A stretch of DNA of 64,000 nucleotides from Candidatus Zixiibacteriota bacterium. Lineage in GTDB: Bacteria > Zixibacteria > MSB-5A5 > GN15 > JAAZOE01. The notes beneath the pieces were generated by a model. The model saw only the letters and a program-made list of their open reading frames with translations. It had not been told where the DNA came from and ran no database searches. The position numbers and the translations under genes were made by a program. This document shows, piece by piece, positions 16,717-18,755 of this stretch; the first letter of the stretch is position 1; each line of letters begins with the position of its first letter. Location: assembly GCA_036480375.1 (NCBI GenBank), contig JAZGGI010000003.1, forward strand, positions 141,892 through 205,891. Direction: 5' to 3'.

Positions 16717-18291
16717 CTATGATTTTTTAATTTCACCCAGTAGTTTTTTTAGATAATCCAACATCTTGTCTCTCGGAATAGTCACCTGGATATTTTCCGC
16801 CTTGAGCCATTCTTCGCGGTCGGCCACCTCTTCGGCCTGGACTCTGCCCGCCACAAGATTTTTCACCGTCACCTGACTATTTTCAAATTCGTCTGAACCG
16901 AGAATAACGGCTACAGGAATACCGACCCGGTCGGCGTATTTGACCTGCTTGGTGAAATTCCTGGTTTCCCCCAAAAATATCTCAGCCTTTATACCCGCGC
17001 CTCTGATTTCGTTAAGAATTTGGAGATAATCGGGCATTCGTTCTTTATCCATCGCCGTCACCAAAACTTCCGATATCGTCGGCTCGGTTTTAATAACACC
17101 CTTGAGCATCAGCGCTGCCAGAAGCCGGTCAATTCCGGCCGATGCTCCCGTTGCCGGAATCTTGCGCCCGAGAAACCGCTCGACCAAGCCGTCATAACGT
17201 CCCCCCGCAAAGACCGACCCAACCTCGGGAATATCTTCCAGAACCGTTTCAAACACCGGCCCGGTATAATATCCGAGTCCACGAACAATAGTTAAATCAA
17301 CCTCAGCTTTTTCTTCCGGGACACCCAGATTTTTGAGATAGGATGCAATCAGTCTTAACTCTTCAATCCCCTCTTGCGCTTCCCTAATGCCTGCTTCAGG
17401 TTGACGCCCTTCAATTTCTTGCATGGAAATTTCGCCCAATTTCATTTGCGAAATGGCTTCTGTCCAACCAAATTCGCTTTCAACCTCTTTCATATCTTTC
17501 GAAAATTGGGCAAATTTCAATAATCTCTCAGCCATTGTTAATACATCTGTAGATTTTGTTGGTTTAAGAAGTAAAAACCACATTATCATTCGTATTTGAA
17601 ATTCAGGTAGATTTAATCCCTGAATTTTATCGCCTGATTTATCTGTGCGCCCGGAGCCAAGTTCGAGTTTGACCGCTTCCATTCCCTGCTTTTCACGCTT
17701 ATCAAGTACTCGAAATACATCTTGGGCTTTTTCATCTGGAATACCAACATATTTCCAGATACCATTTAATATTTTGCGATTGGAGTATTTGACTTTATAA
17801 TTAGGCAGGCCGAGCTTCTCAAACGATTTGCAAATCGCCGCCATGATCTCGGCATCGGCCAGCATGCTCGACGTCCCCACCGAATCAATATCGAACTGGG
17901 TAAATTCACGGAACCGTCCGGGTCCCGGTTTATCAACGCGCCAGACCGGACCGATTTGATATCTACGAAACGGCAACGGCAAATCCGGATTTCCGGCGAC
18001 ATACCGCGCCAGCGAAGCCGTCATTTCAAACCGCAGAGCCATGTCGGTTTTTTCCGGCCCGACAAAGCTGAAAATCGTCTCCAGATTTTCCTGCCCGTAA
18101 TCAGAACCTTTGAGAACTTCGACCCGTTCCAGAGCCGGAGTTTGCAGCGGGGAAAATCCGAAAGATTCGAACACCTCCCGAAACACCGCCACAAGTTTTT
18201 GTCGCGCAATCTCTTCGGAAGGCGGATAGTCTTTGAAACCCTTGAGGACTTCCGGCTTTATCTTTTTTGGTTTGTTCTTTTTTTTACTCAT
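16717..18291 (-). CDS. hisS: histidine--tRNA ligase, long (524 aa) atypical form
   Basis: Class II motifs FRRYQIGPVWRVDKPGPGRFREFTQFDIDSVG and GGRYDGLVERF...ATGASAGIDRL, plus a C-terminal anticodon-binding domain. An extra ~100-aa segment lies between motifs 2 and 3. Confidence 0.93.
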   Translation of the reverse strand: MSKKKNKPKKIKPEVLKGFKDYPPSEEIARQKLVAVFREVFESFGFSPLQTPALERVEVLKGSDYGQENLETIFSFVGPEKTDMALRFEMTASLARYVAGNPDLPLPFRRYQIGPVWRVDKPGPGRFREFTQFDIDSVGTSSMLADAEIMAAICKSFEKLGLPNYKVKYSNRKILNGIWKYVGIPDEKAQDVFRVLDKREKQGMEAVKLELGSGRTDKSGDKIQGLNLPEFQIRMIMWFLLLKPTKSTDVLTMAERLLKFAQFSKDMKEVESEFGWTEAISQMKLGEISMQEIEGRQPEAGIREAQEGIEELRLIASYLKNLGVPEEKAEVDLTIVRGLGYYTGPVFETVLEDIPEVGSVFAGGRYDGLVERFLGRKIPATGASAGIDRLLAALMLKGVIKTEPTISEVLVTAMDKERMPDYLQILNEIRGAGIKAEIFLGETRNFTKQVKYADRVGIPVAVILGSDEFENSQVTVKNLVAGRVQAEEVADREEWLKAENIQVTIPRDKMLDYLKKLLGEIKKS

Positions 18292-18315
18292 TGTGCGTTG
18301 ATATAAATAAAAAAA

Positions 18316-18389
18316 TACTGGGGGGCGGGATCGAACCGCCGGCCTCCTGATCCACAGTCAGGCGCTCTGACCACCTGAGCTACCCCAGC
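18316..18389 (-). tRNA. tRNA-His (anticodon GTG) with no encoded G-1, G1:U72 and A73
   Basis: The reverse complement GCTGGGGTAGCTCAGGTGGTCAGAGCGCCTGACTGTGGATCAGGAGGCCGGCGGTTCGATCCCGCCCCCCAGTA folds as a cloverleaf with anticodon loop CTGTGGA. The base 5' of G1 is T. It lies 24 nt upstream of hisS on the same strand. Confidence 0.88.
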
Positions 18390-18755
18390 ATCACAAGGCT
18401 TATATATTACTTTTTATCGCCCCTAAGTCAAGCGAATTTAGCGGGAGGGTATCTCCTGATTACTCAAATTATTCTGAAATTCCTGACGTTTGATAATTTC
18501 CCTGCAATTCTCCGTAGTTGATGGCAATTAAGGCAACATATTAGAGGATTAATATAATTGGCCCTTGACAACAATTATGTATTTAACTTATCCTGTCACG
18601 GCAATATTAATTTATCATATTCAGGATTTATTAAAATTATCATTCCGGCAAAGGCGGGAATCCATCCCAGGGGCAGGCTGCTGCCTGGTATGTGCTTTAA
18701 AGAACATTTCTGCTAAAGTGAATGCCTATAGGCAGGCGAATTATTGGGTGATGGG

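Follow-up and report, generated by a model that had tools for sequence, protein, structure and literature searches.

The extra guanosine that tRNA-His carries at its 5' end (G-1) is near-universal and ranks among the most conserved tRNA identity elements. In Escherichia coli, G-1 is encoded in the gene, pairs with C73, is kept by an unusual RNase P cut, and is read by the motif-2 loop of histidyl-tRNA synthetase (HisRS). A tRNA-His without G-1, accompanied by a divergent HisRS, has been described in the RRCH alphaproteobacteria (Ardell & Andersson 2006; Wang et al. 2007; cited through Yuan et al. 2011, PMC3064791). Here we report on a pair of genes from a Candidatus Zixiibacteriota bacterium in the phylum Zixibacteria. 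Within a window of 64,000 nucleotides, by which we mean the whole stretch of DNA that was analysed (assembly GCA_036480375.1, contig JAZGGI010000003.1, positions 141,892 to 205,891), a tRNA-His gene that lacks an encoded G-1 stands directly upstream of hisS. Judging from the sequences of the tRNA and the enzyme, we consider it very probable that this pair constitutes a G-1-independent histidine-charging system of the Caulobacter/RRCH family, organised as a tRNA-His-hisS transcription unit.

Previous work on the two kinds of enzyme provides the basis for comparison. Gln118 of E. coli HisRS contacts the G-1:C73 pair, and Gln in the motif-2 loop co-varies with G-1:C73, with Gly found in RRCH HisRS (PMC3937112). 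Kinetic analysis of HisRS from Caulobacter crescentus revealed losses of 91- to 1000-fold for anticodon mutants and of 91-fold for U72C, whereas an added G-1 gave no help (PMC3064791). The literature we found treats bacterial G-1 loss as a single event in one alphaproteobacterial clade, RRCH, and a 2023 review concurs (PMC9976931). In that literature, we found nothing relevant on HisRS proteins of Zixibacteria or on G-1 loss in other phyla.

A tRNA-His gene without G-1

The tRNA-His gene and the elements flanking it are as follows:

18316..18389, minus strand: tRNA-His(GTG), G-1-less type (ARAGORN, Rfam RF00005, direct reading)
18390, minus strand: position -1 of the tRNA-His gene, which is T and not G (direct reading)
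18404..18431, minus strand: sigma-70-like promoter candidate, TTGACT, 16-nucleotide spacer, TAATAT (consensus scan, 9/12 hexamer matches)
18292..18315, minus strand: T-rich spacer of 24 nucleotides between the tRNA-His 3' end and the hisS start codon (direct reading)

An earlier note on this DNA had proposed a tRNA-His with G1:U72, A73 and T at position -1, and this observation is now confirmed. ARAGORN found two tRNAs in the window and placed tRNA-His(GTG) at 18315-18390 (-), the Rfam model RF00005 matched the gene at full length with 68.4 bits, and direct reading of the acceptor stem GCTGGGG/CCCCAGT, with numbering set from the T-loop, gives G1:U72 and C2:G71 followed by the discriminator A73 rather than C73. 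The 3' trailer is TTT and CCA is not encoded. In four relatives A73 directly precedes an encoded CCA, which fixes the 3' boundary of the tRNA. The D-loop, AGGTGGTCA, has 9 nucleotides and is enlarged by an extra base 20a (C here, T in most relatives), and the tRNA carries G37.

The start codon of hisS, an ATG at 18291, lies 24 nucleotides past A73 on the same strand, as the earlier note had also reported. No terminator-like hairpin was found in this spacer, and in the surroundings of the unit the Rfam models matched nothing but the tRNA at E <= 0.1, neither a T-box nor any other leader RNA. The promoter candidate ends ~14 nucleotides upstream of tRNA-His position 1. This tRNA-His is the only one among the 45 tRNAs of its own genome (G000), whose assembly is 97% complete, and the genome likewise has only one hisS. 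Thus, a second, canonical tRNA-His, for which the earlier note had advised a check, is not found there.

The base at position -1 is not a peculiarity of one genome. Among the 140 genomes in which the tRNA was found in the order to which the window belongs, one has G there and the other 139 have T, A or C, with T the commonest; G at -1 combined with A73 occurs in 1 of 160 genomes of the order. The G-1-less tRNA-His of the window is not a chance feature, as 162 of the phylum's 285 genomes have a tRNA-His of this type.

A separate observation concerns another tRNA of the same genome. At G000:C47:29984-30058 (-), ARAGORN calls a tRNA whose anticodon has four bases (accc) and whose base 73 is T; its stem GCGGGTG/CGCCCGC is near the GCGGGTG/CACCCGC of the tRNA-Gly genes. 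The gene may derive from a tRNA-Gly and have an 8-nucleotide anticodon loop like that of a frameshift suppressor, or it may be a pseudogene. The genome also has one tRNA-SeC.

A HisRS of the G-1-independent type

The gene and the parts of its product that matter for classification are as follows:

16717..18291, minus strand: hisS, 524 amino acids, HisRS of the G-1-independent (Caulobacter/RRCH) type (TIGR00442, Pfam PF13393 and PF03129, tree)
17890..17952, minus strand: motif-2 tRNA-binding loop GPVWRVDKPGPGRFREFTQFD, residues 114-134, with KPGPGR (alignments)
17617..17658, minus strand: 14-residue insert GSGRTDKSGDKIQG, residues 212-225, in the insertion domain, common to RRCH enzymes (alignments)
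17389..17568, minus strand: lineage-specific extra segment, residues 242-301 (alignment; missing in most Zixibacteria orthologues)
16762..16845, minus strand: insert in the anticodon-binding domain, residues 483-510, containing ADREEWLKAENIQVTI, common to RRCH enzymes (alignments)

The protein matches TIGR00442 (hisS) with 363.9 bits against a cut-off of 286.75, and the HisRS proteins nearest to it bear the annotation Candidatus Zixiibacteriota or candidate division Zixibacteria. At 524 residues it is long compared with most Zixibacteria orthologues (476-490). The earlier note had attributed this length to a single insertion of ~100 residues, which proved incorrect: the extra length over E. 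coli HisRS lies in four places, namely an N-terminal extension and residues 212-225, 242-301 and 483-510.

Three of these four additions, together with the motif-2 loop, are common to the window enzyme and the RRCH enzymes. The loop reads KPGPGRFR(E/Q)F in both, compared with RPQKGRYRQF in E. coli, and Gly123 of the window HisRS occupies the position of E. coli Gln118. The insert in the insertion domain follows the pattern GRxDxSGDxxxG over 12-14 residues, and in an AlphaFold2 model of the window HisRS (mean predicted local confidence, pLDDT, 85.5) it forms a beta-hairpin with strands at 214-216 and 222-224 (pLDDT ~90). The insert in the anticodon-binding domain follows the pattern ..REEW..Q..V/I; its RRCH equivalent has been proposed to be an anticodon-recognition element (PMC3064791, PMC3245924). 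A Lys-rich N-terminal extension is also common to the window enzyme and the RRCH enzymes.

The fourth addition, residues 242-301, is confined to close relatives of the window and probably reflects an expansion that the insertion domain tolerates. Its pLDDT is 48-63 across residues 261-300, and the GC content of the codons for residues 255-300 is 39%, below the 46.6% of the whole gene. At this same site, two other Zixibacteria proteins (P0034 and P0035) have insertions that differ from it, which marks the site as a hotspot where the insertion domain expands.

Phylogeny of the enzyme

Database matches already point towards the alphaproteobacterial enzymes. When a plasmid collection, which takes in chromids and mislabelled chromosomes, was searched with the window HisRS, the best named matches came from the RRCH genera Paracoccus, Cereibacter, Ruegeria, Sinorhizobium and Methylobacterium, with 35-41% identity over 96% of the protein, compared with ~30% for Bacteroides and Bacillus HisRS in the same collection. 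We also assembled a survey set from the 150 best 50%-identity cluster representatives among 1.8 billion proteins, to which Zixibacteria and reference rows were added. Loop type and the two inserts co-occur across this set: both inserts are present in 49 rows, none of which has Gln at the loop position, and 90 rows have Gln in the loop and neither insert (canonical). Two proteins, P0200 (EKPGPGRFREF) and P0175 (DKPKPGRFREF), have a loop like that of the G-1-independent enzymes but neither insert, and branch outside their clade; they may be intermediates or independent loop changes.

Before our main maximum-likelihood tree (88 rows, LG+C20+F+G4) was computed, the columns of the loop, of the two inserts and of the lineage-specific segment were taken out. 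Even so, the insert-bearing, G-1-independent HisRS proteins form one clade with support of 97/95 (100 in a quick tree and 98/97 in a 46-row tree), with the long-branch row dGrep_P0169, itself unresolved, just outside. As aligned and placed in this way, the window HisRS is a true homologue of the Caulobacter-type G-1-independent enzyme of RRCH, beyond mere resemblance. The link to the alphaproteobacterial system that the earlier note had drawn is thereby borne out by clade, loop and inserts, and there is no grouping with canonical enzymes.

Two further aspects of the 88-row tree bear on the history of the enzyme. First, the HisRS proteins of the window's order form a clade (99/99) that branches into family f2 (families carry our own labels), then f1, then f3 and f4 together, and this agreement with the families is in keeping with vertical inheritance within the order. 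Second, the RRCH enzymes form a clade (99/88) nested within a larger group (98/97), whose outer branches are a Planctomycetota metagenome-assembled genome (MAG), Candidatus Uabimicrobium amorphum, a Blastocatellia MAG and uncultured bacteria. A tree constrained so that all non-alphaproteobacterial members form a single clade that excludes the alphaproteobacteria is worse by 162.5 log-likelihood units (p-AU 0.0001; 46 rows, LG+G4), in a test whose constrained group was chosen after the tree was seen.

Two systems within one phylum

To map the tRNA types, two exact tRNA-His patterns were run over all 285 genomes of the phylum: the canonical one (G-1...C73) and the G-1-less one (non-G at -1, G1, C2...G71, U72, A73). 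The 162 genomes with the G-1-less pattern are distributed over families as follows:

f1, 13/13
f2, 4/5
f3, 91/108
f4, 30/33
f9, 6/6
f10, 6/6
f16, 9/10
f19, 1/3
f20, 1/15

The canonical pattern occurs in 84 of the 285 genomes, in families f5, f6, f7, f8, f11, f13, f14, f15, f17, f18 and f20, and essentially all of these sequences read GGTGGGTG...CACCCACC. The genomes concerned lie outside families f1, f2, f3, f4, f9, f10 and f16, with the exception of G163, the sole genome with both tRNA-His types, for which contamination stands at 8%.

The enzymes follow the same division. HisRS proteins from five canonical-tRNA genomes were aligned (G034, G059, G253, G273 and G276), and in each of them the loop has Gln and the inserts are absent. 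Four of these proteins are E. coli-like, with reading frames of 418-491 residues, and that of G059 is Bacteroides-like; by family, E. coli-like enzymes occur in f5, f17 and f20 and the Bacteroides-like one in f8. HisRS type matches tRNA-His type in every Zixibacteria genome checked. Linkage of the two genes varies among the G-1-less families: a spacer of 8-41 nucleotides separates tRNA-His from hisS in 11 of 13 loci of family f1, the window included, the linkage is looser in f4 and f2, and it is lost in the f3 loci examined.

Proposed processing and recognition of the tRNA

We propose that one promoter upstream of tRNA-His would drive both genes. Type-A RNase P would cut tRNA-His at the usual +1 position, as for all other tRNAs, to leave a 7-base-pair acceptor stem that begins at G1. 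A 3' endonuclease would cut past A73, the CCA-adding enzyme would complete the tRNA, and these processing cuts would also release the hisS mRNA. HisRS would then select the tRNA mainly through the GUG anticodon, U72 and A73, like the C. crescentus enzyme. Because the combination of G1:U72 and A73 is also present in three tRNA-Arg, tRNA-Lys(CTT) and one tRNA-Met of the same genome, much of the specificity must lie in the anticodon. The G1:U72 wobble by itself is common in this genome, where it is seen in three tRNA-Arg, tRNA-Lys(CTT), one tRNA-Met, tRNA-Glu(CTC) and tRNA-His.

Several points weigh against this interpretation. The promoter candidate is a consensus match only, base 20a is C in the window compared with U in RRCH tRNAs and most relatives, and the charging rules of this organism, like the 5' end of its mature tRNA, are inferred by homology. 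Furthermore, RNase P RNA is missing from the G000 assembly, in which neither a match to RF00010 nor an exact CR-I motif was found. Since 25/25 relatives searched, including members of the same genus, have an RNase P RNA of the standard type A (254-292 bits), we treat this absence as most likely an assembly gap. A protein-only or otherwise unusual RNase P was considered and rejected for the same reason. Finally, T at position -1 could pair with A73 and so mimic an 8-base-pair stem.

This last point leads to a first alternative, which we regard as quite unlikely: RNase P might cut one nucleotide early at T(-1):A73, such that an 8-base-pair stem starts at U-1 and the extra pair is read by HisRS. 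That T is complementary to A73, and is the base most often found at -1 in tRNA-His genes of the order, fits this idea. However, the capacity for pairing between positions -1 and 73 extends to 42 of the 44 non-His tRNA genes of G000, compared with 24.8 expected and with none of 100,000 shuffles reaching 42, and so does not mark tRNA-His for a special cut. The pairs are T:A (22), C:G (9), A:T (5), T:G (3) and G:T (3), and all 20 tRNAs with a base other than A at position 73 follow the pairing. On these counts it looks like a genome-wide rule of pre-tRNA processing, and a special role for T at -1 of tRNA-His was therefore rejected. The other tRNA of the window, at 357-430, is included in the count; CCA is encoded in 14 of the 44 genes, and most of the others then have T-rich trailers. 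Other observations also oppose retention of U-1. In several relatives, A or C stands at -1, and neither base is able to pair with A73. Sinorhizobium meliloti also has U-1, and position 1 is the reported start of RRCH tRNA-His (PMC3064791). The Gln that is tied to a -1:73 pair is absent from the window HisRS.

It is very unlikely, in our estimation, that cleavage at +1 is followed by addition of G-1 opposite A73 by an unrecognised enzyme, as happens in eukaryotes. A73 without an encoded G-1 is the eukaryotic arrangement too, and the earlier note had listed such addition among its options. However, the Thg1 domain (PF04446), which also represents Thg1-like proteins, was found in none of 41 genomes of the order (G000 and 40 relatives), whereas it was detected in a control Methanosarcina genome. 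The window HisRS belongs to a clade whose characterised member gains nothing from G-1, and U72 and the inserts are marks of a G-1-independent system.

Origin and exchange of the pair

A third possibility, which we judge highly improbable, is that G-1 was lost independently in Zixibacteria while the resident HisRS adapted, with no alphaproteobacterial connection. The D-arm of the window tRNA does resemble that of canonical Zixibacteria tRNA-His, but the HisRS of canonical-tRNA Zixibacteria is a different type, far from the G-1-independent clade. In addition, the two inserts and the loop are common to RRCH enzymes, and the grouping persists when those columns are removed. The independent loss envisaged by the earlier note is thus unsupported, given that the enzyme is homologous to the alphaproteobacterial type. 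A recent acquisition by this one genome, as an island or a binning artefact, is scarcely credible: a linked two-gene unit is compact and transferable, and a swap within a genus is seen in G274 (described below), but the same tRNA type occurs in all 13 genomes of family f1 and in 138 of 159 other genomes of the order, the spacing is kept in f1, the HisRS tree follows families, the GC content of hisS (46.6%) is near that of the genome (44.1%), and the contig of the window has at least 205,891 bases.

The option that fits best is the joint transfer of a tRNA/synthetase pair, also among those raised by the earlier note, with the qualification that any such transfer is ancient for this genome, as the family-wise tree and the GC content of hisS indicate. 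In this history, an ancestor would have replaced its canonical G-1/C73 pair by acquisition, and the pair would have been vertically inherited within the window's order thereafter. Tight linkage of tRNA-His and hisS would permit replacement of the pair in one transfer.

An example of such a replacement is provided by G274 (family f20, genus g127, 100% complete), the sole member of its family with a G-1-less tRNA-His. The one hisS of this genome belongs to the G-1-independent type and lies 25 nucleotides downstream of that tRNA (measured to the first in-frame ATG), whereas its congeners G273 and G276 have a canonical tRNA-His/HisRS pair. In G276, hisS lies between aspS and a gene for an 824-residue protein; in G274 these two neighbours adjoin, ~810 nucleotides apart, with no hisS remnant between them. 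The loci compared are:

G274, C4:312100-313624 (L202) and C30 (L210)
G276, C2 (L204)

No synteny with G276 was found around the G274 cassette, and in the 88-row tree the G274 enzyme groups with branch P0123 and not with the main Zixibacteria clade. Relative to other members of its genus, G274 has thus exchanged tRNA-His and hisS together, and the presence of the cassette together with the loss of the resident hisS establishes that whole-pair replacement occurs. A further case is G017 (family f2, L032), whose HisRS, with the loop WRYEKPGPGRYREF and the insert GRKDASGDFTEG, groups with a Planctomycetota/alphaproteobacterial subclade and not with the main Zixibacteria clade. This placement suggests a second exchange, between G-1-independent lineages.

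Beyond Zixibacteria, a cross-phylum scan was made with one genome per species. Its results apply to the matches listed, which include no Zixibacteria and amount to a sample of phyla and not a census. Among them, a G-1-less tRNA-His directly upstream of a G-1-independent hisS on the same strand is found in at least two Thermoanaerobaculia MAGs, a Blastocatellia MAG and an uncultured bacterium, and one Vicinamibacteria MAG and one Nitrospiraceae MAG have the HisRS type. Members of Acidobacteriota thus have the linked pair too, and the HisRS type is shared by the Nitrospiraceae MAG and, in the tree, by Planctomycetota. One Thermoanaerobaculia MAG (JBAQWH010000701.1, L081) has two tandem G-1-less tRNA-His genes, each with an encoded CCA, upstream of its G-1-independent hisS. 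In contrast, none of ~60 RRCH loci among the matches listed has tRNA-His within 1.5 kb of hisS.

These observations raise the question of whether the G-1-independent system is alphaproteobacterial in origin at all. We would give an even chance to the view that it is not, and that it is instead an older, transferable two-gene cassette, with tRNA-His directly upstream of hisS, that has repeatedly displaced the canonical pair in part of Zixibacteria, in Acidobacteriota and, if the HisRS type is taken as the guide, in Planctomycetota and Nitrospirota as well. One recipient would then be the RRCH alphaproteobacteria, in which the genes were later unlinked, and G274 would indicate that displacement is ongoing.

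Implications

What is new here is the split within a phylum, the swap within a genus and the nesting of the RRCH enzymes. If the pair is indeed standard in more than half of sampled Zixibacteria and also present in Acidobacteriota, with the HisRS type in Planctomycetota too, then this trait alone is no synapomorphy for alphaproteobacterial placement, for example of SAR11. A pair that widespread would also require that the proposed origin of the RRCH enzyme be revisited, and the tRNA-hisS cassette would offer a concrete case of a cell's one-step change in an essential rule of tRNA identity. Moreover, there would be many natural orthogonal HisRS/tRNA-His pairs for use in genetic-code engineering.

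Comparison with known systems

The system that most resembles the one in the window is that of the RRCH alphaproteobacteria, as represented by C. crescentus and S. meliloti. Their tRNA-His likewise has no templated G-1, the discriminator A73, the pairs G1:U72 and C2:G71, and a 9-nucleotide D-loop, and the S. meliloti tRNA matches the window in U-1, G1:U72, C2:G71 and A73. The HisRS proteins have in common the KPGPGR loop, the GRxDxSGD insert, the anticodon-binding-domain insert and their clade. There are also differences. The host of the window pair is a member of Zixibacteria, and its tRNA lies 24 nucleotides upstream of hisS, whereas no tRNA-His lies within 1.5 kb in the ~60 RRCH loci listed. 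An insert of 8-13 residues found only in RRCH enzymes (TFEILDEKGRKRQ, past 'YYTGPVFE') is missing from the window HisRS, which has its own lineage-specific segment of ~60 residues, and base 20a of the window tRNA is C.

With the canonical E. coli system, the window pair has in common the class IIa HisRS fold and motifs and the GUG anticodon. It differs by being without G-1 and C73, by U72 in place of C72, by Gly in place of the loop Gln, and by its extra inserts, although canonical pairs of this kind do exist in other families of Zixibacteria. The Thg1-dependent system of eukaryotes is similar in having A73 and no encoded G-1, but it is set apart by the lack of a detected Thg1 homologue here, by U72 rather than C72, and by a HisRS that belongs to the G-1-independent clade. 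Finally, Trypanosoma brucei and Acanthamoeba castellanii, both protists, have a G-1-independent HisRS, with no G-1 on tRNA-His and no Thg1 (PMC4338351, PMC3561963), and the trypanosomatid HisRS structures 3hrk and 3hri are moderate matches to the window enzyme (~156-165 bits). Those protist enzymes differ from the one in the window in that they arose separately, within eukaryotic HisRS.

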